Shown: in pieces, positions 6,637-31,706 of the stretch
Position numbering within the stretch: position 1 is the stretch's first letter
Layout of the letters: each line of letters opens with the position of its first letter
Virus record (IMG/VR): IMGVR_UViG_3300042401_001464
Location: 1 to 31,764 of that record
Length of the DNA: 31,764 bases
Reading direction: 5' to 3' (one strand)
DNA from: a virus
Taxonomy: Duplodnaviria > Caudoviricetes
Program-made: the position numbers and the translations under genes
Notes under the pieces: generated by a model
What the model saw: the letters and a program-made list of their open reading frames with translations, nothing else
What the model was told of the DNA's origin: nothing
Database searches by the model: none

Positions 6637-6643
6637 ATAAACG

Positions 6644-6675
6644 AAAAAACCCAATCTGTTTTGCAGACTGGGTTT
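6644..6675 (-). terminator. Attenuator terminator 1, directly 5' of tRNA-Tyr
   Basis: AAACCCAGTCTG-CAAAA-CAGATTGGG-TTTTTT. Confidence 0.85.
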
Positions 6676-6698
6676 ATCATATTTTGTAATCTTTACAA

Positions 6699-6785
6699 CT
6701 ACTCAACAGACAAAGTCAGTCCACTTACAAAGCTACCCGCTTCATATGCATACCCTATGGCTTCTATTTTGTGTGTTGTTTTCAT
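6699..6785 (-). CDS. Putative attenuation leader peptide 1, MKTTHKIEAIGYAYEAGSFVSGLTLSVE
   Basis: 28 aa between promoter boxes and terminator; 11-codon run of I/E/A/G/Y only. Confidence 0.8.
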   Translation of the reverse strand: MKTTHKIEAIGYAYEAGSFVSGLTLSVE

Positions 6786-7261: not shown

Positions 7262-7272
7262 TATATAAACAC

Positions 7273-7304
7273 AAAAAACCCTCGGCGTTTAGTCCGAGGG
7301 TTTT
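7273..7304 (-). terminator. Attenuator terminator 2, 5' of tRNA-Arg
   Basis: AAAACCCTCGG-ACTAAACG-CCGAGGG-TTTTTT. Confidence 0.85.
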
Positions 7305-7330
7305 ATTTATATGATACAATTAAAGTATTA

Positions 7331-7408
7331 CTAACTAAATAAACACGTCAGATCTATCACTCTACTCGAGCGACTTAAACTTGACGATATGTTAATAATA
7401 GTTTTCAT
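7331..7408 (-). CDS. Putative attenuation leader peptide 2, MKTIINISSSLSRSSRVIDLTCLFS
   Basis: 25 aa; TCG TCA AGT TTA AGT CGC TCG AGT AGA run. Confidence 0.78.
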   Translation of the reverse strand: MKTIINISSSLSRSSRVIDLTCLFS

Positions 7409-7437
7409 AATTCTTTATTTGTTATATATTATAAATG

Positions 7438-7988
7438 TAGTTCTTTGTTTAGATTATTCTTTCTTTATATCTAAAAGCTGTTTACGTATTTTTCTAAAAT
7501 CTTTTCTTGAATAACCTGATAATCCTTCTTTATTAAATTGTCTGTATAATTTTGAGCAATAGTTAATCTGTTGGTTGATTGCATAGTCTCTACGTTCTTT
7601 CCATGAATCTGTAAAAGGATGATTTTGCATTTCTTTACGATTTCGATATACACTATCACAAAATGTAATCTCGGAGTCTAAAATGGGACTACGTGTATTT
7701 ATATATTTAGTTACCCATTTTTCACGTTCTAATATCTTTTGTCTTTTGTGAATATTTTCTTCGTTTTTTTTATTACGCCACTCTTTAAAAGTCTGTGGGT
7801 GTGAGTTTATATAACTAGAGTTAATATATCCAGAGTAACTATACGAATAGTATTGTCCGTTGATTACTCCGTGACCATTGATACTATAATATTGTGCTGA
7901 TACCAAAATACACGTTAGTAACGAGATGGTCAATAAAATTATTTTTGAATTTCTCATATACAAATATAGTTCTTTGTTTAGATTATTC
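7438..7988. repeat. 22-bp direct repeat TAGTTCTTTGTTTAGATTATTC (7438-7459 and 7967-7988) flanking one ORF
   Basis: Exact match read from the sequence. Confidence 0.9.
7454..7963 (-). CDS. Hypothetical secreted protein
   Basis: 169 aa with an N-terminal signal peptide; TATATTTG at the 5' end, so the true start may be the second Met. Confidence 0.7.
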   Translation of the reverse strand: MYMRNSKIILLTISLLTCILVSAQYYSINGHGVINGQYYSYSYSGYINSSYINSHPQTFKEWRNKKNEENIHKRQKILEREKWVTKYINTRSPILDSEITFCDSVYRNRKEMQNHPFTDSWKERRDYAINQQINYCSKLYRQFNKEGLSGYSRKDFRKIRKQLLDIKKE

Positions 7989-8004: not shown

Positions 8005-8135
8005 TGGTAGGGAGGTGGGATTCGAACCCACGACCACGCGGTTAACAGCCGAAGTAACTCTTCTATTCGGCACTCTTGCGAGGCAAAGTTATAAATGAGT
8101 ATTGTACGTGCTCTACCAACTGAGCTACTCCCTAC
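8005..8135 (-). tRNA. tRNA with GTT (Asn) anticodon interrupted by a 55-nt insert (8052-8106) in the 5' strand of the anticodon stem
   Basis: Canonical D arm (TAGCTCAGTTGGTAGAGC) and T arm; removing the insert restores CGCGG-CTGTTAA-CCGCG. Confidence 0.8.
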
Positions 8136-8138
8136 GTA

Positions 8139-8360
8139 TTATTTTATTCTTACAATCAGTGATCCTGGATTTAGTGGAATCTCCTCTATTTTGAAGTTGT
8201 AGTCTTTCGATACTTCCTTCACAATATTCTTCATACTCTCACTTATACCCGTAACAACCTCAACTTCATAATGTCCTCGCTGTATCATCTGCCAGTAGAA
8301 CTGATCAAGTTTCAATTGTACATCAGCGTGTTTTGTCCCGTGTAAGTCTAATCTGTTCAT
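8139..8360 (-). CDS. Stand-alone Smr (small MutS-related) domain protein
   Basis: LDLHG...VEVVTG...NPGSLIV motifs. Confidence 0.8.
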   Translation of the reverse strand: MNRLDLHGTKHADVQLKLDQFYWQMIQRGHYEVEVVTGISESMKNIVKEVSKDYNFKIEEIPLNPGSLIVRIK

Positions 8361-8380
8361 AAATTATATATTATGTTCTG

Positions 8381-8455
8381 TGACCCCGGTGGGACTTGAA
8401 CCCACGACCCCTCCATTAAAAGTGGAGTGCTCTGAACCAACTGAGCTACGAAGTC
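8381..8455 (-). tRNA. tRNA-Lys(TTT)
   Basis: CTCCA-CT-TTT-AA-TGGAG. Confidence 0.92.
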
Positions 8456-8463
8456 ATAATTTG

Positions 8464-8536
8464 TGTGGATGACAGGAATTGAACCTGCGCGACCCAGATC
8501 TTCAATCTGGTGCTCTACCTGCTGAGCTACATCCAC
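8464..8536 (-). tRNA. tRNA-Phe(GAA)
   Basis: CCAGA-TT-GAA-GA-TCTGG. Confidence 0.9.
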
Positions 8537-8540
8537 GTTT

Positions 8541-8615
8541 TGGTGTCGAACGGGACTTGAACCCGCGACCTCTGGTTCCACAAAACAGCGCTCTGACCGA
8601 CTGAGTTACCGACAC
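8541..8615 (-). tRNA. tRNA-His(GTG), no encoded G-1
   Basis: CTGTT-TT-GTG-GA-ACCAG; C73. Confidence 0.85.
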
Positions 8616-8617
8616 AG

Positions 8618-8690
8618 TGACCCCGGTGGGTTACGATCCCACTCTCCCCATATTAAAAGTATGGTGCTTTCCCGATTAAGCTACGAAGTC
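8618..8690 (-). tRNA. tRNA-Lys(TTT), variant T loop
   Basis: CCATA-CT-TTT-AA-TATGG; T loop ATCGTAA. Confidence 0.88.
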
Positions 8691-8698
8691 ATATTTTG

Positions 8699-8771
8699 CG
8701 CGTCGCCAAGGATTCGAACCCTGACCCTCTGGGTTGGAACCAGAGATGCTAAGCCGTTACACCAACGACGC
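8699..8771 (-). tRNA. tRNA-Trp(CCA)
   Basis: TCTGG-TT-CCA-AC-CCAGA; G73. Confidence 0.88.
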
Positions 8772-8783
8772 TTGTGTTTTTTG

Positions 8784-8855
8784 TTGCCCCGACAGGGATT
8801 GAACCTGTGATCCCCTGATTAAGAGTCAGGTGCTTTACCGCTCAGCTACAAGGCA
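8784..8855 (-). tRNA. tRNA-Lys(CTT)
   Basis: CCTGA-CT-CTT-AA-TCAGG. Confidence 0.9.
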
Positions 8856-8859
8856 ATTT

Positions 8860-8935
8860 TGGTGGAGCCGACGGGTTACGATCCCGTTCCTCTGGATTTT
8901 CAGTCCAGCGCAATGACCACATCTGCCACAGCTCC
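8860..8935 (-). tRNA. tRNA-Phe(GAA), variant T loop
   Basis: CTGGA-CT-GAA-AA-TCCAG; T loop ATCGTAA; encoded CCA. Confidence 0.88.
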
Positions 8936-8944
8936 TTGTTATGT

Positions 8945-9019
8945 TGGGTGCATGAGGAATTTCGAAATCCCGACCTTCGGCTCCACAAACCGACACTCTG
9001 CCTCTGAGCTACACACACC
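8945..9019 (-). tRNA. tRNA-His(GTG)
   Basis: TCGGT-TT-GTG-GA-GCCGA; G-1:C73. Confidence 0.9.
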
Positions 9020-9032
9020 ATATATGTAAACG

Positions 9033-9062
9033 AAAAAACCCAAGTCTTTTGAACTTGGGTTT
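9033..9062 (-). terminator. Attenuator terminator 3, 5' of tRNA-His
   Basis: AAACCCAAGTT-CAAAA-GACTTGGG-TTTTTT. Confidence 0.85.
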
Positions 9063-9082
9063 CTGTTATTTATTGTTATTGT

Positions 9083-9202
9083 CTACAAAGTCGTCAAATC
9101 TTCCGAAAACAAACACAATACTTTTACAGTACCAAGTTCTGATTTATTGCTAAACCACTTGCTTGATTTACTAAAATGCTTATGTGTATTAATTGTTCTC
9201 AT
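9083..9202 (-). CDS. Putative attenuation leader peptide 3, MRTINTHKHFSKSSKWFSNKSELGTVKVLCLFSEDLTTL
   Basis: 39 aa; H/K/F/W/N(+S) run followed by antiterminator GAACTTGG. Confidence 0.8.
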   Translation of the reverse strand: MRTINTHKHFSKSSKWFSNKSELGTVKVLCLFSEDLTTL

Positions 9203-9294
9203 TATTTCTATATATTAAAAATTTATTCTCTCTTTTTTATTTATAGTACAAATTTAGTAAAAGTTTTTAAATTTACCAAGTTTTTTCATTTATT

Positions 9295-9350
9295 TTGTAA
9301 AAAAGTTGAAACTTGTATCTGAATCGTTTCCCATTCCAACTTTTTTACAA
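9295..9350. repeat. Perfect 14-bp inverted repeat (TTGTAAAAAAGTTG / CAACTTTTTTACAA) with a 28-nt spacer
   Basis: Read from the sequence. Confidence 0.8.
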
Positions 9351-9391
9351 ATTTATGGGCTTTTTCCGTTCTACCTAATTTTATAGGTTTT

Positions 9392-9426
9392 AAAAACAAA
9401 AGTCATAAATAAATTTATGACTTTTG
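9392..9426 (-). terminator. Terminator-like hairpin downstream of the lysozyme gene
   Basis: CAAAAGTCATAAA-TTTA-TTTATGACTTTTG-TTTTT. Confidence 0.65.
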
Positions 9427-9973: not shown

Positions 9974-10557
9974 AATAATTTTTTATTTTTTGAGCCGTCA
10001 TTTGCGTATTTTATACCCATAATTGTACCTACGATGGAGAATGCATTTGTCAGTAGTATACTTACTAAGTTACTCCATGCTGGTCCTATTATGTTTGTTT
10101 CTTTATTTAGTATTATTGCAACTATATAAAGTGATGTTGCTACAACACCAACACCTATTATTATCCATATTGAAACTTTTACAACTGTGTTTATAAGTTC
10201 ATATTGTGTTCTTTTACGTATTATTTCTAAGTCTTCCTCAGCAACCTCTTTGGCCTTTATTGCGTTTTGTTTAGCTATTTCTGCGATGTTTAATGCATTT
10301 TTCAGTTCCTCACCTATCCTTACATTTTCATCTTTCCATTCTAACAATTCTCTATTTTGTGTTTGTATTTGTTTTGTTATAACTAATCTTTTTCTTCGAT
10401 TGTTTTTATCCTTATCTGTTGCAATTTTAATATATTCTTTGAATTCTAAATCTGTATCATCTGTTTCAATTACTTTAAGAATATTACCTTCCAAATAGAT
10501 ATTATTTATCTTGGCTAATTCGAGAAGGTCTTTCTTTGTATCTTTACAGAGTTTCAT
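9970..10557 (-). CDS. Coiled-coil protein with 2 C-terminal TM helices (holin or lysis-regulator candidate)
   Basis: Hydrophobic segments; ATGA overlap with lysozyme. Confidence 0.6.
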   Translation of the reverse strand: MKLCKDTKKDLLELAKINNIYLEGNILKVIETDDTDLEFKEYIKIATDKDKNNRRKRLVITKQIQTQNRELLEWKDENVRIGEELKNALNIAEIAKQNAIKAKEVAEEDLEIIRKRTQYELINTVVKVSIWIIIGVGVVATSLYIVAIILNKETNIIGPAWSNLVSILLTNAFSIVGTIMGIKYANDGSKNKKLL

Positions 10558-10988
10558 TATTTATATATTTTGAAATTTGCAGTCCTGTTCACATAAGATG
10601 GATAGTCCTTTTTAAATTCTTCTAGTCTTGGTTCTATATCATCATTCTTTATTATCCAAAATTGTGCACCTGCTTGTAGTGCTTTGGCTTGTTCGGTTGC
10701 TTCATTTGAAGATGAGATGATGCCTATAACAACGTGATTTCCATATTCAAAGTTTATTCTTCTGACTAATTCTATTCCGTCAAATGTAGAGCCTATTATA
10801 TTTAAGTCTACAAATACACAAACTGGTCTTCCTGTTGGATTTTTGTGCCATTTTGAGAATTTATTGGATGCCTCATCAGCGCTATCTATACATTCTAATG
10901 TAAGTGAAATATCGAGTAGACTACAAGCGTCTTCAAAAACTAAGTGAAATAGAGACTCATCGTCTACGAGTAGTATTGAATCAATCAT
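10557..10988 (-). CDS. Stand-alone response-regulator receiver domain
   Basis: ILLVDDE; VFVDLN (phospho-Asp); DGIEL; IISSS; WIIK. Confidence 0.9.
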   Translation of the reverse strand: MIDSILLVDDESLFHLVFEDACSLLDISLTLECIDSADEASNKFSKWHKNPTGRPVCVFVDLNIIGSTFDGIELVRRINFEYGNHVVIGIISSSNEATEQAKALQAGAQFWIIKNDDIEPRLEEFKKDYPSYVNRTANFKIYK

Positions 10989-12759
10989 TTTTATATTTTA
11001 TTTTTATTTTAGTACCACCAATGTCTACCTTTTCACATGACACTTTGAATCCATGTTCTTTAAGTATTGCAATGCAGATATTAAGTCCTAAACCAGTTCC
11101 TGATTCCTTTTGGTCAGCTTTTCGCGCATATGGTTTAGAGTATATATCAAATTCTTCTTGTGTTAGTCCACGTCCGTTGTCTTGTATGGCTATTGTATCA
11201 TCGGTATCGTGATATATTTTAACTATTCTGGTTGGACTGTCATTGTATTTTAGACCATTTCTTATTAGATTATCTATTGCCGTACAAAATAGAGATTCGT
11301 TAACTTCGATAGTTGGTAAATTATCAGATAATATAACTGCTTCTTTGTATGCGGTTGATTCTAAATATCGGTTAAGTATTTCTTTTATATTATATGGTTC
11401 AATTTCCAGTACACTATCCTTTTTTACCAGATTTGTAAATTCATACACACCTTTATAAACACGTTGTGTGTGAGTGAGTCCTTCTTTTAGAAGTCTTATT
11501 GGTGCCTCTAATTTATATTCTTTTATTATTTCTGGTTTTAGTCTTCGTATCAATGAGTTTATTCCTTTTGGAATATAGGTATTTATACCTGAGTGCATAT
11601 CGTGTCTCAATATTTTGGCGGCGTGTTCTAAGTATGTGTTTTTCTTTTCGATTTCAATTGATGCATCAACGATTTTGGTTACGTCTTGTCTAATTGATGT
11701 GAATCCGATATGTTCATTAGTTTCTGGATCAAAATCTGCCTTTATATAGGTATCTACAAAATAGTGATGTCCATCTTTTGACTTATTGGTAACAACCTCG
11801 TTCCATATTTCTCTTTTGTTTATTGTGGTTGTGTACATATTTTTCCAAAATTCTTTGTTATGTATACCGGAGCTCAATATTTGATGGTCTTTACCCATAA
11901 CTTCTTTAGTTTTCCATCCTGAAACTTTTGTAAATTTTTCATTGACATAAGTTATTCTACCTCTTTTGTTTGTTTTGGAGACCAACATTGCAGTGTCCAT
12001 AAAATTCTCAATTTCTACAAGATTTTTTTTAGTATCATTACCATCTGCAATTGACCATGAGAATGAGTATAATGATGATAATACTTGTGCGAAATTAACT
12101 TCGGTGTCTATCCAATTTCTTTTGGTGTAACTCTCAATACAAATAACACCTATTGTTTCACCTCTGAATAAAATTGGTACATCTATTAGAGATTTTATAC
12201 CAAGTGGTTTTAGATAGCTTTCGTGTAGACATTCTGTTGCTAAATTTGTTTCTGCATCGTCTGCAACTATAACTGGGTTGGTTAGTAATTCATTGAAATA
12301 TGATAGATAATCACTATATTCTAAACTACCACCCGTTGACCAATCATTATCGGATAATTTATAGAGCATATCCAATTCAATTGATTTAGTTTGATCGTTA
12401 TACAACCAAATTCCACATCTATCAACACCTAAATTTTCAACAACATCTTTGGTTAATATTTTTGAACATTCTAATAAATCGCCATCGTAAAAAACTGGAT
12501 TATGTGATTGGTTTATAAGTGTTAAATTTAATTTATTTGTATAATTATTTAATTTTTCCGCATCTTGTGCTCTTATTAGGTGATCTCTTACCATTCTAAA
12601 GAAAAATGGTAGGGTTGATAAAAAAAATAATATTTCGATTGTTTTTGTACTTGATGAAGTTTCTAATATATCGGTCAACATAAGTAACTTTAGTATAAGG
12701 TAACCCACGGAAAAGGCACTTGTCATTATTATGTTTGTGAGTGTTCTTTTACTAATCAT
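10981..12759 (-). CDS. Membrane sensor histidine kinase (TM-GAF-PAS-HisKA-HATPase)
   Basis: GAF (GIKSLIDVPI..GVICIE); PAS (GRITYVNEKF); H box LRHD; N box NLIRNGLKY; DNGRG; GTGLGL. Confidence 0.93.
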   Translation of the reverse strand: MISKRTLTNIIMTSAFSVGYLILKLLMLTDILETSSSTKTIEILFFLSTLPFFFRMVRDHLIRAQDAEKLNNYTNKLNLTLINQSHNPVFYDGDLLECSKILTKDVVENLGVDRCGIWLYNDQTKSIELDMLYKLSDNDWSTGGSLEYSDYLSYFNELLTNPVIVADDAETNLATECLHESYLKPLGIKSLIDVPILFRGETIGVICIESYTKRNWIDTEVNFAQVLSSLYSFSWSIADGNDTKKNLVEIENFMDTAMLVSKTNKRGRITYVNEKFTKVSGWKTKEVMGKDHQILSSGIHNKEFWKNMYTTTINKREIWNEVVTNKSKDGHHYFVDTYIKADFDPETNEHIGFTSIRQDVTKIVDASIEIEKKNTYLEHAAKILRHDMHSGINTYIPKGINSLIRRLKPEIIKEYKLEAPIRLLKEGLTHTQRVYKGVYEFTNLVKKDSVLEIEPYNIKEILNRYLESTAYKEAVILSDNLPTIEVNESLFCTAIDNLIRNGLKYNDSPTRIVKIYHDTDDTIAIQDNGRGLTQEEFDIYSKPYARKADQKESGTGLGLNICIAILKEHGFKVSCEKVDIGGTKIKIKYKND

Positions 12760-20646: not shown

Positions 20647-20658
20647 GGTGGCATTTTT
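20631..20658. terminator. Bidirectional terminator
   Basis: aaaaatgccacc-ctaa-ggtggcattttt. Confidence 0.85.
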
Positions 20659-22190
20659 TATGCTAAAACTGTTTCGGTTCCACTTTTAGTGAGAGCCTCA
20701 ATTTTACCTCTAATCTCTGTAAGTGTGGTTTCGTTGTAAAACTTACCATCTTCGTAGATAACTTGAAGGATTCCTTCTTTCTCTTCGTCAAATGTGCATT
20801 GTACACCTACTGAGTGGTCACCATCTTCTGTTTCATGAACCGAGATAAGTCCTTTCAATGATTTCTTAGTTCCATCATCTGAGATTGGATCTTTGTAGAT
20901 ATCGTGTTGAACTCCATTCTCTTCGAACCAAGCACCTTTTGCTGCAAATCCAAATGTATCACGCGTATTGTATTGGTAAGTATAAGAACCTACACCTAAA
21001 ACAATGTTCGTAGCTGCAAAACCTTTCTCTGCTAATCTCTCATAGATTTGAACCTGACGATCGGTCGTAATAGAGTCACCGTAAATGGCACCGATGTGTG
21101 GGTCTAAGACTTTATATCCTTGTTCATTGATTGTTCCACCAAAGATGTCCCATAAACACTCAATCAATCCTTTTGTGTAGAACTCTGGATAGAATGCGCG
21201 GTTCTCATTATCTGTTAATTCAGTTCTTCCGTGTCCACAGATGATTTCAACTGGATCTCCAGAGTCAGGACGAATAACTAACTTACCATCACGAGATAAG
21301 ATTTGGTCTTTCAGGTCGAAGCAATATCCACCTTCAGATGGTTTGGCAACTTTTGTGATGTCGAACGTATCCATTACTACTGATAAAATACCTTTATCAA
21401 ATTTGTTCATCCAATCGATTAACATTTGTTTCTCACCAACGGTGAAAATTTTGGTAGTAGATACAGAGTGTTCTGATGCATTTACAGAGTTGATACAAAC
21501 TTCATTCTTAGGCTCACCATAGAAGTAACGAGCTGCTGGAATAACTACAATAGTATCAGAACCTCTAAATGACGTAGCGTGTCCTAAGCCAGATGAAACC
21601 ATCGTCCAAGGATCGATACCACGTGCTGAGAAGTCGTGTGCTAAGAAAGGAATCAACCAAGCGTTAGTAGGGTCTGTCTTTAGTACCCACTCGTAAAGGT
21701 TTCGGTTGTACTTAAGTGCGATTGTTGCGGATGTTGCAGGTTTCCACGCCAAAGATGACACGATTGTCTCTAAGAAAAGAGTAAGCCAAGCGTATCCTTT
21801 CTTTGTGTTGACGAACGTCATATGTGGCACGTTCGGTCTTGTCTCGATTCCCTCAGGAAGAGCTTTTGCTCTAATTGGTAAGTAACCTAATTTATGAAGA
21901 GTAATAAAGTGGTCTCCATTAAATTCCATACCTAAATATATACTCATATCTTCAACGAATGATATAGCTTCTTCAACTGGCTTGTTGAAAAAGTTTTCAG
22001 TGAATTCGTCATGAATCCATCGCCAAGTTAGTTGTTGTCCAAATGATACAATTTTATTGATACCTTTTGGTGCGTGTTTTGTAGAACGTGGAATCCATGT
22101 CCCATAAAGGAAGTCAGTTCCTTCTGCGAGCATCGCTTTGTGGCCAATCTTGTAGCCGTCTGTGTAATACAGTGATGTGGGTCTAAACAT
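20658..22190 (-). CDS. nadV: Nicotinamide phosphoribosyltransferase family protein (NAMPT/NadV; probable Namat of NARP1)
   Basis: TDGYKIGH; HDFSARG; ASEHSV; VIRPDSGDP; IYGDSIT; RDTFGFA; KKSLKG. Confidence 0.92.
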   Translation of the reverse strand: MFRPTSLYYTDGYKIGHKAMLAEGTDFLYGTWIPRSTKHAPKGINKIVSFGQQLTWRWIHDEFTENFFNKPVEEAISFVEDMSIYLGMEFNGDHFITLHKLGYLPIRAKALPEGIETRPNVPHMTFVNTKKGYAWLTLFLETIVSSLAWKPATSATIALKYNRNLYEWVLKTDPTNAWLIPFLAHDFSARGIDPWTMVSSGLGHATSFRGSDTIVVIPAARYFYGEPKNEVCINSVNASEHSVSTTKIFTVGEKQMLIDWMNKFDKGILSVVMDTFDITKVAKPSEGGYCFDLKDQILSRDGKLVIRPDSGDPVEIICGHGRTELTDNENRAFYPEFYTKGLIECLWDIFGGTINEQGYKVLDPHIGAIYGDSITTDRQVQIYERLAEKGFAATNIVLGVGSYTYQYNTRDTFGFAAKGAWFEENGVQHDIYKDPISDDGTKKSLKGLISVHETEDGDHSVGVQCTFDEEKEGILQVIYEDGKFYNETTLTEIRGKIEALTKSGTETVLA

Positions 22191-22202
22191 TTTATTTTAT
22201 TT

Positions 22203-22841
22203 TTATTTATTATCTTCGAATATAAGTGTGAATCTTTTTTTTGATAAACTCCATCTCATTTTATAATAGACGAATATGTACTCAGTCTTTTTATCGTCTT
22301 TATAGTTTTGTAGAAAAGTAAATGTCATCCATTTCAATTTTTTACTTTCAATTGCATCCGACACTGATTTTATAGAAATTATTTCATAAAATAAAGAATC
22401 TGAACATGTGCAACTTTCATTTTCGTCAAAAATACGTAAAACAATGTCATTTTTTATTGTGTCTGACATATAATAAAAGAAACGAATTATTGAAAACTCG
22501 GCTTTCGGATCATCTATTTCTTCACTTATAACATATTTTAGTTTTTCGTTGTTTTCAAATAATAATTTCCTTCTATCTGCGGCCAATGTGTTAATCTTTA
22601 CATTGACATCTTTGTTAGTCATAAAAATACCATTCTTATGAATATGTTTTGCAATAGTTTCTATTAAGTTTATGGAATCGTATTCGTGTAAATATGAGTA
22701 AGTGTGTCCATTATCCACAAAGTAATATTCCTTTAGGTTGGGTTCCTCATAATATATTGGTGTGTCCGCCTGTGAGAGACTAAAAAACGAAAATGATATA
22801 ATAAATATCGTTAGCATTCTGTTTATCACATCAGTTCTCAT
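22203..22841 (-). CDS. Hypothetical secreted protein
   Basis: 212 aa with a signal peptide. Confidence 0.7.
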   Translation of the reverse strand: MRTDVINRMLTIFIISFSFFSLSQADTPIYYEEPNLKEYYFVDNGHTYSYLHEYDSINLIETIAKHIHKNGIFMTNKDVNVKINTLAADRRKLLFENNEKLKYVISEEIDDPKAEFSIIRFFYYMSDTIKNDIVLRIFDENESCTCSDSLFYEIISIKSVSDAIESKKLKWMTFTFLQNYKDDKKTEYIFVYYKMRWSLSKKRFTLIFEDNK

Positions 22842-23028
22842 TATATTTTCTTTTATTATGTTCTTTCTCTATTCCTTTCGCCAAACATTCGTTTTGAGAT
22901 TCCTCTTCAAATACTCCACCCATAAAGATAAAGAATATTCCTGGTAATGAAAGTAAGAAAGAAGGTATTATAAGAATCATTCCGAATATCCTAAATATGG
23001 CTCCTAATATGTTGATCATTTTTCTCAT
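22831..23028 (-). CDS. Small membrane protein
   Basis: 65 aa, hydrophobic N-terminal half; overlaps both neighbours. Confidence 0.6.
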   Translation of the reverse strand: MRKMINILGAIFRIFGMILIIPSFLLSLPGIFFIFMGGVFEEESQNECLAKGIEKEHNKRKYNEN

Positions 23029-23441
23029 ATCTCGTATATTCCTGGTTCGTCTGACTCGTCCAAAAAACGGAATTTTACCATAGTCTTTCCGACTAATTCG
23101 TGTGTCGACGTTTTGTTAACGTTTTCTATTTCTCCTATTGTGTATGCGGTTCTTACAGAATCTGGTATTCCTTGTCGTATACACATTTCAGAATAAAGTC
23201 TGTGAATTTCTTCCGCAATCTCTCTAACCTTCTCTGGCTTAGTTGTACATCCAGGATGTACATCCTCGTCCATAGGTATAACAATTTCGTCTTTGAACCT
23301 CTCGTTTATATACTCTGCAATAGTCGCGACATTTTCTTGAAAGGATTTAGGTGTCTCGGAAAGGAAATGACAATACTTTATCCAATCACCAGGAACACCA
23401 TCTTTTGGACATATCTTTGTGTATATAACTCCGTATTCCAT
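23025..23441 (-). CDS. Hypothetical protein
   Basis: 138-aa ORF in operon context. Confidence 0.75.
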   Translation of the reverse strand: MEYGVIYTKICPKDGVPGDWIKYCHFLSETPKSFQENVATIAEYINERFKDEIVIPMDEDVHPGCTTKPEKVREIAEEIHRLYSEMCIRQGIPDSVRTAYTIGEIENVNKTSTHELVGKTMVKFRFLDESDEPGIYEI

Positions 23442-23442
23442 C

Positions 23443-24252
23443 TTATACCGTTTGTGGTTTGTTAAAAACTGTTCCTTCTAAAAGATAAACAAGATCATAA
23501 GTTGTCAAATTGTTGAGCTCGTAATATCCGAATTTCGAGTTGGTTGTGAATATTTTGTCATAGTGCTGCTCCAACTCAGGGTTAGGATTCTGAACCGTCA
23601 TATGTGATACTGCTAAGTAAAGTTTACCCGCGTTTCTTTCTTTCAGAAGTTTAGCCAAACCAACAAAAGTTCCTCCAAAAACACAAAGGTCATCAATAAC
23701 AAGAATATCTTTACCCTCAAAGTCTTCGTTCTCGATTACTTGCGTTAGCTTGTGTGTGATTAGGTCTCTCGACTTACTCGCACTATACACCTCACCCTCG
23801 AACTTAATTTTATCTGCTAATTTATTGATCCATTTGAACGATCCTGCGTCAGTTGATAAAAGCACCGGTTCCTGTTCCAGGTCTTTTAGAACCTGTGATA
23901 TAAAAGCACTATTGTCTACGACTCTAGCGTTTCTCACTCCCATTCCTGTTGAATCTGAGTGTGGATGGAATATTGTAACCTTGCTAAAATCACAAGAGTT
24001 GATAAAGTCTGCAACAAGTTTTAGTTCAAAAGACTCATTGTCTGCAAATCTACGGTCGTGTTGTTGTTGGAACATGCACGGTATAAAAAGCTCTACATCG
24101 TTTACTCCGTTAAAGTCACAAACGTCTTTGATCGACTTTATAAAGAAAAGGTCCTCGTATGAATTTATCCTCTCTACAATCTGTGGATTGGTGAAGTCTT
24201 GTACCTCTGCATAAATACCACCATCGGGATATTTTTTTCTAGTATATTTCAT
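23443..24252 (-). CDS. prs: Ribose-phosphate pyrophosphokinase family protein (probable Adps of NARP1)
   Basis: YPDG; QHDRR; HPHS; STDAGS; KSRD; VIDDLCVFGGTF; AVSH. Confidence 0.88.
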   Translation of the reverse strand: MKYTRKKYPDGGIYAEVQDFTNPQIVERINSYEDLFFIKSIKDVCDFNGVNDVELFIPCMFQQQHDRRFADNESFELKLVADFINSCDFSKVTIFHPHSDSTGMGVRNARVVDNSAFISQVLKDLEQEPVLLSTDAGSFKWINKLADKIKFEGEVYSASKSRDLITHKLTQVIENEDFEGKDILVIDDLCVFGGTFVGLAKLLKERNAGKLYLAVSHMTVQNPNPELEQHYDKIFTTNSKFGYYELNNLTTYDLVYLLEGTVFNKPQTV

Positions 24253-29488: not shown

Positions 29489-29499
29489 AAGTATAAACG

Positions 29500-29529
29500 A
29501 AAAAACCCAGTTAGTAACTAACTGGGTTT
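29500..29529 (-). terminator. Attenuator terminator 4, 5' of tRNA-Pro
   Basis: AAACCCAGTTAG-TTA-CTAACTGGG-TTTTTT. Confidence 0.85.
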
Positions 29530-29550
29530 ATAATCATTTAAGCTTTTTAT

Positions 29551-29649
29551 TTAACTTTTTGACAATATACAGTTAGTCCCAAGTAACTTAGGTTGATCCT
29601 GATCCTGCGGGATGTTTACTACTGCGATATTTTTGTTAAAAGTTTTCAT
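29551..29649 (-). CDS. Putative attenuation leader peptide 4, MKTFNKNIAVVNIPQDQDQPKLLGTNCILSKS
   Basis: 32 aa; CCG CAG GAT CAG GAT CAA CCT run followed by antiterminator GACTAACTG. Confidence 0.82.
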   Translation of the reverse strand: MKTFNKNIAVVNIPQDQDQPKLLGTNCILSKS

Positions 29650-30557: not shown

Positions 30558-30560
30558 TTA

Positions 30561-30770
30561 TAGATTAGTATTATCGACACCTTTACCCTTTGGACTTAGT
30601 CAGTTCGTCCGTTCGGGTTCTGTACTCGCTTCTTTCCGACTTGATTTCTAATCCTTGTCGGTTATAGCTTTCCTCCCAGTCCACGTATTGTTTGCGCAAC
30701 TATCCGTGATGCAAAGGGTCAGATCATTTGCACGATGGCTATTCCCTCCATCTTATCGATTACTAATCTA
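30561..30770 (-). ncRNA. Unknown ~210-nt structured RNA between two tRNAs
   Basis: Closing stem TAGATTAGTA-ATCGA / TCGAT-AA-TACTAATCTA; several internal helices; no ORF. Confidence 0.65.
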
Positions 30771-31513: not shown

Positions 31514-31597
31514 TTTTATCTATATATATATATTTTTTCACCACTTCGAACCATATAAAAATGGTTTTGATTAGTATCAAAGAACGTTTTTTTTTGT

Positions 31598-31704
31598 TGT
31601 GTGTACGGGATTCGAACCCGTACACACTACCAAAATTTCTATGTCTGCAAACATTTCGATTTTGGCTCTCGTAGGTTGTTGCAGCAACCTTTGATAATCT
31701 TAGC
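31598..31704 (-). ncRNA. tRNA-like element: 11-bp minihelix capped by a TTCGAAT T loop, preceded by two hairpins
   Basis: GTGTGTACGGG-TTCGAAT-CCCGTACACAC-A. Confidence 0.5.
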
Positions 31705-31706
31705 TG

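Follow-up and report, generated by a model that had tools for sequence, protein, structure and literature searches.

Leader-peptide attenuators are known from amino-acid operons, for example trpL, hisL and pheL, and some of them, such as the thrL and ilvGMEDA leaders, are multivalent. The pheM attenuator controls the pheST (Phe-tRNA synthetase) operon of E. coli. T-boxes work without an ORF, by direct binding of uncharged tRNA. Why phages carry tRNA genes has been described as a question open for decades (PMC10264068); a counter-defence role has been hypothesised in the same paper, and a case involving PARIS is given in PMC11464382. For T5-like phages, the main text of PMC11555353 reports rescue from retron-Eco7 by tRNA-Tyr, which needs a strong promoter, and from PrrC by tRNA-Lys. 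Here we describe a phage tRNA unit whose leader codons match its own cassette and whose anatomy is conserved, with mutually exclusive pairings. From its sequence and predicted folds, it is very likely a ribosome-mediated attenuator acting on the host polymerase and opening on shortage; it would respond to His, Phe, Lys and Trp and probably also to Ser.

The window (the stretch of DNA analysed, i.e. a whole 31.8-kb virus record) is part of a huge phage genome. The closest match to its tRNA region in the annotated collection is LR745206.1, an uncultured phage of 634,780 bases, and records of 385-508 kb are present among the best 150 of 248 tRNA matches listed. The window harbors 20 tRNA genes (default ARAGORN), and its ORFs include a phage lysozyme and a NAMPT/PRPP-type pair. 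The latter region (20658-24252, minus strand) carries NAMPT (PF04095) and phosphoribosyltransferase-domain genes in proximity, likely an NAD+ salvage pair. A phage-borne two-component pair, composed of a receiver-domain protein and a GAF-PAS-histidine-kinase gene (10557-12759, minus strand), adjoins the lysozyme gene upstream of the tRNA region. Between tRNA-Trp and tRNA-Met lies a GC-richer non-coding stretch of about 210 nt (30560-30770, minus strand) whose ends look complementary; it is a candidate structured RNA with no Rfam match at E values up to 5. Finally, a tRNA-like 3' half (31590-31705, minus strand), possibly an interrupted tRNA, follows about 75 nt incompatible with a cloverleaf and comes directly after the cut-off tRNA at the window end. 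The unit under study comprises the following features:

9397..9426, minus strand: hairpin and T-run after the lysozyme gene (-13.0 kcal/mol, z -6.8)
9249..9279, minus strand: Bacteroidota-type primary-sigma promoter candidate (sequence and motif count in relatives)
9209..9216, minus strand: AT-rich 8-mer immediately upstream of the start codon, perhaps an element for initiation or a phage promoter (motif count)
9083..9202, minus strand: leader ORF of 39 codons (A at -3, no Shine-Dalgarno visible)
9152..9184, minus strand: predicted sensing codons 7-17, also segment 1 (composition, conservation, folding)
9151..9170, minus strand: weak candidate for a polymerase pause hairpin inside the sensing codons (consensus fold)
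9132..9139, minus strand: segment 2, antiterminator strand, codons 22-24 (exact complement and covariation)
9051..9058, minus strand: segment 3, terminator 5' arm, common to antiterminator and terminator (complement and covariation)
9033..9062, minus strand: intrinsic terminator hairpin (3:4) and U-tract (terminator scan, covariation, fold)
8380..9018, minus strand: eight tRNA genes (ARAGORN)
8139..8360, minus strand: 73-aa Smr-domain-like ORF inside the unit (Pfam, sub-threshold; same place in L008)
8006..8134, minus strand: tRNA-Asn(GTT)-like gene (found by ARAGORN only when a 55-nt insertion is allowed)

The tRNA genes downstream of the leader are His(GTG), Phe(GAA), Lys(CTT), Trp(CCA), Lys(TTT), His(GTG), Phe(GAA) and Lys(TTT), in the order given by the first-pass annotation. 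An Smr gene and a tRNA-Asn had been placed at the end of this series; the former corresponds to a match that remains sub-threshold (E 5e-5, 23.8 bits, below the cut-off of 25.7) and the latter to a tRNA-Asn-like gene whose anticodon stem is interrupted in its 5' strand by 55 nt, off the usual intron site. A search for the Smr protein returned two loci, neither with a tRNA cassette. The insertion, of 55-56 nt, is conserved in the tRNA-Asn(GTT)-like genes of the window, L032, L071, L074 and L120, and contains a small hairpin with a loop of GNRA type, variable in L074. The interrupted gene is a candidate for an unusual intron or a tRNA-like RNA. Moreover, four huge phages have tRNA-Asn genes of 87-90 nt in which the variable arm is long (L040 3512-3598, L043 3090-3179, L047 10002-10088 and L053 2399-2485).

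The sensing codons of the leader read His7, Lys8, His9, Phe10, Ser11, Lys12, Ser13, Ser14, Lys15, Trp16 and Phe17. Over codons 7-20 there are two His (CAT), two Phe (TTT), four Lys (AAG at 8 and 15, AAA at 12 and 20), one Trp, one Asn and four interspersed Ser, a composition that the first-pass annotation had counted correctly. His, Lys, Phe and Trp make up 9 of these 14 codons against 17% in the proteins of the window; the binomial probability is 1e-4 for this run, chosen by hand, and 4e-4 for codons 6-21. Among 7,794 windows of 14 residues in the window's ORFs, four hold at least nine such residues and none holds them with all four kinds represented. The leader mirrors the cassette, as had been stated, in its set of amino acids, though not in their order. 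Each of the four leaders of the window scores best against its own cassette in a 4x4 matrix.

Some residues of the run are unlikely sensors. Asn sensing was rejected because Asn codons do not track Asn tRNAs: an Asn codon is present within codons 6-19 in 6 of 7 units with a tRNA-Asn and in 14 of 21 without. Of the four Lys codons, Lys8, Lys12 and Lys15 fall in the predicted window and Lys20 beyond it, and only the first three would sense, since the predicted footprint of a ribosome at Lys20 includes the antiterminator segment. A link between the Ser codons and a Ser cassette further downstream is retained in part. These codons lie inside the predicted window, up to 8 of 28 resolvable units include a tRNA-Ser ahead of the next leader detected (two of these eight may contain an Arg/Ser leader that was missed), and the Arg/Ser unit is often without its own -7 promoter element. 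On the other side, structure alone could keep Ser13-Ser14, because in the predicted folds these codons also supply the pairing partner of the antiterminator segment. Three non-exclusive explanations may apply, i.e. an in-unit tRNA-Ser, read-through to the Arg/Ser unit, and 1:2 pairing.

Relatives of the leader were searched with a degenerate pattern covering codons 10-18 only, by which the residues Phe10-Ser18 are fixed. It matched 24 viral loci, 108 metagenome loci and 11 prokaryote-genome loci; 134 phage and metagenome matches were examined, including the window and LR745206.1, from collections that overlap. In 121 of the 134, an ATG lies exactly nine codons upstream and opens a short ORF; a terminator and tRNAs stand behind 110 of these, nine are cut by contig ends and two are without a terminator by the script. 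The other 13 were set aside by this leader rule, although two of them (L105, L124) resemble true leaders. There are 91 distinct leaders, and 48 that are distinct in their first 26 residues. The start codon, His7, the terminator and the downstream tRNAs recur though absent from the search pattern, His7 being CAT in 88 of 91 leaders. Lys8 is AAA in 49 and AAG in 19, and Lys15 is AAG in 61 and AAA in 30, a synonymous variation that fits selection on the amino acid. Past codon 21, residues and ORF length vary freely, whereas codons 7-18 do not. At 28 loci bounded by the next leader, the cassettes contain tRNAs for His, Phe and Lys in 27 cases each and for Trp in 26. One natural example of a joint change in leader and cassette is L092 (2553-2395, minus strand), where both His codons are lost and only Phe and Trp tRNAs directly follow the leader, which keeps its Lys codons although no Lys tRNA follows. 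In a scan of 185,579 prokaryote species genomes with one exact leader pattern, none of the 11 matches has a tRNA within 1.5 kb; other leader sequences could still occur there. A terminator-pattern scan gave 10 loci, two of them relevant (one contig). In addition, tRNAs with TTA or CTA anticodons, possible stop suppressors, are present in G002 and G003 (L029 near +364 of the leader, L042 and L048), and the TTA-anticodon tRNA sits inside a His/Lys/Trp/Phe cassette.

The terminator hairpin has a predicted energy of -15.7 kcal/mol (z -4.25), with two-sided changes at 7 of 10 pairs in a 19-sequence alignment. As the first-pass annotation had noticed, the 8 nt at 9139-9132 are exactly complementary to 9058-9051 in the terminator 5' arm; they form the base of a much longer antiterminator hairpin (fragment 9145-9048, -25.1 kcal/mol, z -4.0), as stable in none of 200 shuffles. 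The antiterminator core of six pairs shows two-sided change at three of them (19-sequence alignment), and 94.7% of its cells are paired, versus 58-61% when slid one column, with 0 of 500 shuffles as high. The pair-count test alone is not significant for these 19 related sequences (66 of 500 shuffles). The 91 distinct leaders fall into segment-2/terminator-arm types of 60 and 28 members plus three others, with no mixed combination; the homologues being related, the 28-leader arm type counts as about one event. A one-pair compensatory variant is also found in L086, L138 and L151. The duplex between a leader's own segment 2 and arm averages -10.2 kcal/mol versus -3.4 when shuffled, and in 86 of 91 leaders it is matched by at most 2 of 50 shuffles. 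The hairpin at 9170-9151 is conserved, shows no compensatory change and is dominant in 25 of 48 leaders. It is extremely unlikely that these hairpins are processing or stability signals of a constitutive tRNA precursor with no termination switch. Termination is indeed predicted only, and structured 5' leaders can in general guide processing, but such a role leaves aside a GC-rich hairpin and U-tract conserved in 91 leaders, one arm with two mutually exclusive partners, and codons matched to the cassette. Six RNA runs, with 0.06-0.09 of the words each, consist of contigs; in the four examined, the pieces of interest came from relatives or covered other tRNAs, and they were set aside because contigs reveal neither ends nor strand nor level.

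In predicted folds of ribosome-free RNA, 44 of 48 representatives have segment 2 paired with codons 7-18, and the mean probability of the terminator over the 48 is 0.99. Masking of codons 7-17 makes the antiterminator the dominant fold of the nascent RNA in 48 of 48, and masking of codon 20 or a later one in 0 of 48; its loss at codons of at least 20 follows from the assumed ribosome footprint of 13 nt from the A-site start. For RNA ending at the 3' arm, the mean probability of the antiterminator is 0.26-0.39 for a stall at codons 10-17, exceeding 0.5 in 13-19 of 48 leaders for these codons and in 2 of 48 for codon 7. For the window leader it is 0.5-0.8 at codons 10-17 once the 3' arm is included. 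In the full window RNA the terminator reaches 0.8-1.0, and the equilibrium fold of the whole RNA shows no switch. Because at equilibrium the terminator wins in most leaders despite a stall, the switch would have to be kinetic, with the antiterminator forming first.

The predicted folds contain a complete four-segment switch of the trp/his type, with a sensing window at codons 7-17 under the assumed footprint. The unit has a short conserved ORF with cognate control codons and an intrinsic terminator before the first gene; in the predicted folds, a mutually exclusive antiterminator shares the 5' arm of this terminator, and the 1:2 pairing is masked by a stall. Conservation, covariation and folding support the attenuator proposed at first reading. 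Rfam leader families for His, Trp, Phe, Leu and Thr have no match in the window, where the downstream genes are tRNAs and not a biosynthetic operon. A T-box riboswitch was also considered and rejected, with no Rfam T-box match at the gathering score or at E values up to 5.

The promoter candidate consists of a -7 element (9256-9249) and an imperfect -33 element (9279-9276) separated by a 19-nt spacer, placing the probable start near 9244. The -7 motif, which corresponds to the Bacteroidota primary-sigma consensus taken from PMC6847099, is the top gapped 8-mer upstream of the leaders (82 of 86, versus 9 of 172 long ORFs). An A at -3, described for SD-less initiation in the same paper, is present in 64 of 86. 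Judging from this motif, the host would be a member of the Bacteroidota, whose RNA polymerase would transcribe the unit. A plain E. coli reporter may not work because the promoter is of the Bacteroidota type. This host group appears able to support the mechanism, since a flavobacterial transcriptome study reports strong clues that amino-acid operons are preceded by leader-peptide attenuation (PMC9723704). The hairpin at 9426-9397 likely insulates the tRNA unit from upstream transcription. Just upstream of the promoter candidate, an inverted repeat with 18-nt arms of 94% complementarity is present at 9294-9351. The AT-rich 8-mer before the start codon, present at 83 of 86 leaders and at 33 of 172 long ORFs, could act as a phage promoter, in line with another scenario in which a phage antitermination protein or phage polymerase overrides the terminator at a set time of infection, the ORF being a vestige or encoding a functional peptide. 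We hold this to be very unlikely, as codons 7-18 are constrained while later residues and ORF length vary, and read-through driven by a protein has no need of a covarying antiterminator.

For the attenuator, we propose that the host (Bacteroidota-type) RNA polymerase would start at this promoter and that a host ribosome would translate the leader. With charged tRNA plentiful, the ribosome would pass codon 19-20 and cover segment 2, the terminator would form and an RNA of about 210 nt would be released. A ribosome waiting on a His, Lys, Phe, Trp or Ser codon among codons 7-17 would mask segment 1, segment 2 would then capture the emerging terminator 5' arm, and the polymerase would enter the cassette. 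With no ribosome, 1:2 pairing would form and the terminator would win. Stalling would end once the new tRNAs are made, so that the loop would be one of negative feedback.

The window carries four leader-terminator units in total, the other three being the following:

7263..7408, minus strand: Ser/Arg-rich leader and terminator before Arg and Ser tRNAs (sister unit)
6637..6785, minus strand: Ile/Glu/Ala/Gly/Tyr-rich leader and terminator before Tyr, Glu, Ile, Gly and Ala tRNAs (antiterminator z -3.0)
29489..29649, minus strand: Pro/Gln/Asp-rich leader and terminator before Pro, Gln, Asp and Pro tRNAs (sister unit; antiterminator in the minimum-energy fold, z only -0.6)

An own -7 motif is found for 10 of 26 Arg/Ser units that follow, versus 81 of 84 for the His/Phe/Lys/Trp leader class, and the Arg/Ser unit may depend on read-through from the His/Phe/Lys/Trp unit. 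In the window, transcription of the Arg/Ser unit could also come directly from a -7 match that precedes the ORF at 7963-7454. This 169-aa ORF is flanked by a 30-nt direct repeat (93%; 7430-7459 and 7959-7988) and looks like an insertion that duplicated a promoter-like segment, because it is repeat-flanked and missing in L008/L032.

Six units each were identified by script in three near-complete relatives, G001 (476 kb), G003 (385 kb) and LR745206.1. The script also flagged hairpins and ORFs that are not leaders, and units were judged by eye. The six classes are His/Phe/Trp/Lys, Arg/Ser, Glu/Tyr, Gly/Ala(/Ile), Asn/Leu/Thr/Val/Ile/Met and Pro/Gln/Asp, together covering 19 amino acids as read from the listing; the tRNA-Cys of G001 stands alone, with no leader found there. 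G002 has five leaders and one large cassette with none detected; its separate Gln-only cassette has a leader with a Gln run, and its Glu/Tyr and Gly/Ala/Ile sets are joined behind a single mixed leader, like those of the window. In G004 (47% complete), Ser tRNAs lie inside the His/Phe/Lys/Trp cassette. Among 137 distinct units, His is enriched 7.6x and Trp 4.2x in the His/Phe/Lys/Trp class, Ser 7.8x and Arg 3.0x in the Arg/Ser class, and Gln 10.7x in the Pro/Gln/Asp class. The genome-wide match of leaders and cassettes rests on the unit listing, these class tallies and the 4x4 matrix of the window, and the cassettes of relatives are a lower bound (best 150 of 248 tRNA matches).

The same switch might instead read overall translation speed or ribosome availability, the codon match being incidental or historical. 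Any stall in codons 7-17 gives an identical fold, and three to four of codons 6-19 are Ser, yet 20 of 28 units are without a tRNA-Ser. We give this reading a small chance only, given that the six leader classes each carry the residues of their own cassette, a match that a generic sensor does not need, and that leader content follows the splits and fusions of cassettes among relatives.

If the leader is an amino-acid-specific attenuator, it could not distinguish amino-acid starvation from tRNA loss, and more tRNA would cure only the latter. For this reason, the signal under selection is probably a tRNA pool that is lost or overloaded in the course of infection, cleavage by host nucleases included. 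The coverage of 19 amino acids by the relatives suggests a general upkeep of the tRNA pool and not a role confined to Lys nucleases, nuclease defence being one trigger among others. We lean, with reserve, towards a genome-wide tRNA thermostat, in which about six attenuators would poll 19 of 20 amino acids and switch on only the failing cassette, so that the phage would detect and repair, in a closed loop, the destruction of host tRNAs by anticodon nucleases or general decay; in some members, the His/Phe/Lys/Trp and Arg/Ser leaders would be two serial gates for tRNA-Ser. If this is true, wiring each tRNA set to its own shortage sensor would mark these tRNAs as a reserve for times of depletion, as opposed to a fixed correction of codon usage, and co-regulated sets may reflect which host pools fail together. 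Each 170-nt leader would then be a ready reporter for charged-tRNA levels, and thus for tRNA-cutting defences, in Bacteroidota.

No description of the attenuation of tRNA genes was found in the literature searched, which consisted mostly of main texts outside subscription journals. The terms "attenuat" and "leader" have 0 occurrences in the main texts of PMC11555353 and PMC10264068, and likewise in that of the huge-phage survey PMC7162821; an earlier mention could lie in the supplements of PMC7162821 and in the leader list of PMC9723704. The unit would represent a known mechanism in a use not found described, i.e. trp-style attenuation extended to tRNA genes and to a virus.

With the leaders of the trpL/hisL type, the phage unit shares a short ORF with control codons, the 1:2, 2:3 and 3:4 pairings and an intrinsic terminator, and with the multivalent thrL/ilvGMEDA type the reading of several amino acids by one leader. 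It differs from these amino-acid operon leaders in being phage-borne, in having tRNA genes and not biosynthetic enzymes as its output, in reading four or five amino acids, and in an ORF that extends across segment 2, with its end 21-43 nt ahead of the terminator arm. As in pheM, stalling at cognate codons would raise a component that supplies charged tRNA; however, pheM is cellular and acts on a synthetase for one amino acid, whereas the phage units would supply the tRNA itself, in parallel for nearly all amino acids in the relatives. T-box riboswitches also sense tRNA charging via a choice between terminator and antiterminator, but the phage leader has an ORF and is without a T-box match. Finally, like the tRNAs of phage counter-defence, those of the cassette would replace tRNAs lost in infection, with a rescue that depends on expression level; the difference is that here their supply would be gated by a predicted sensor of shortage.
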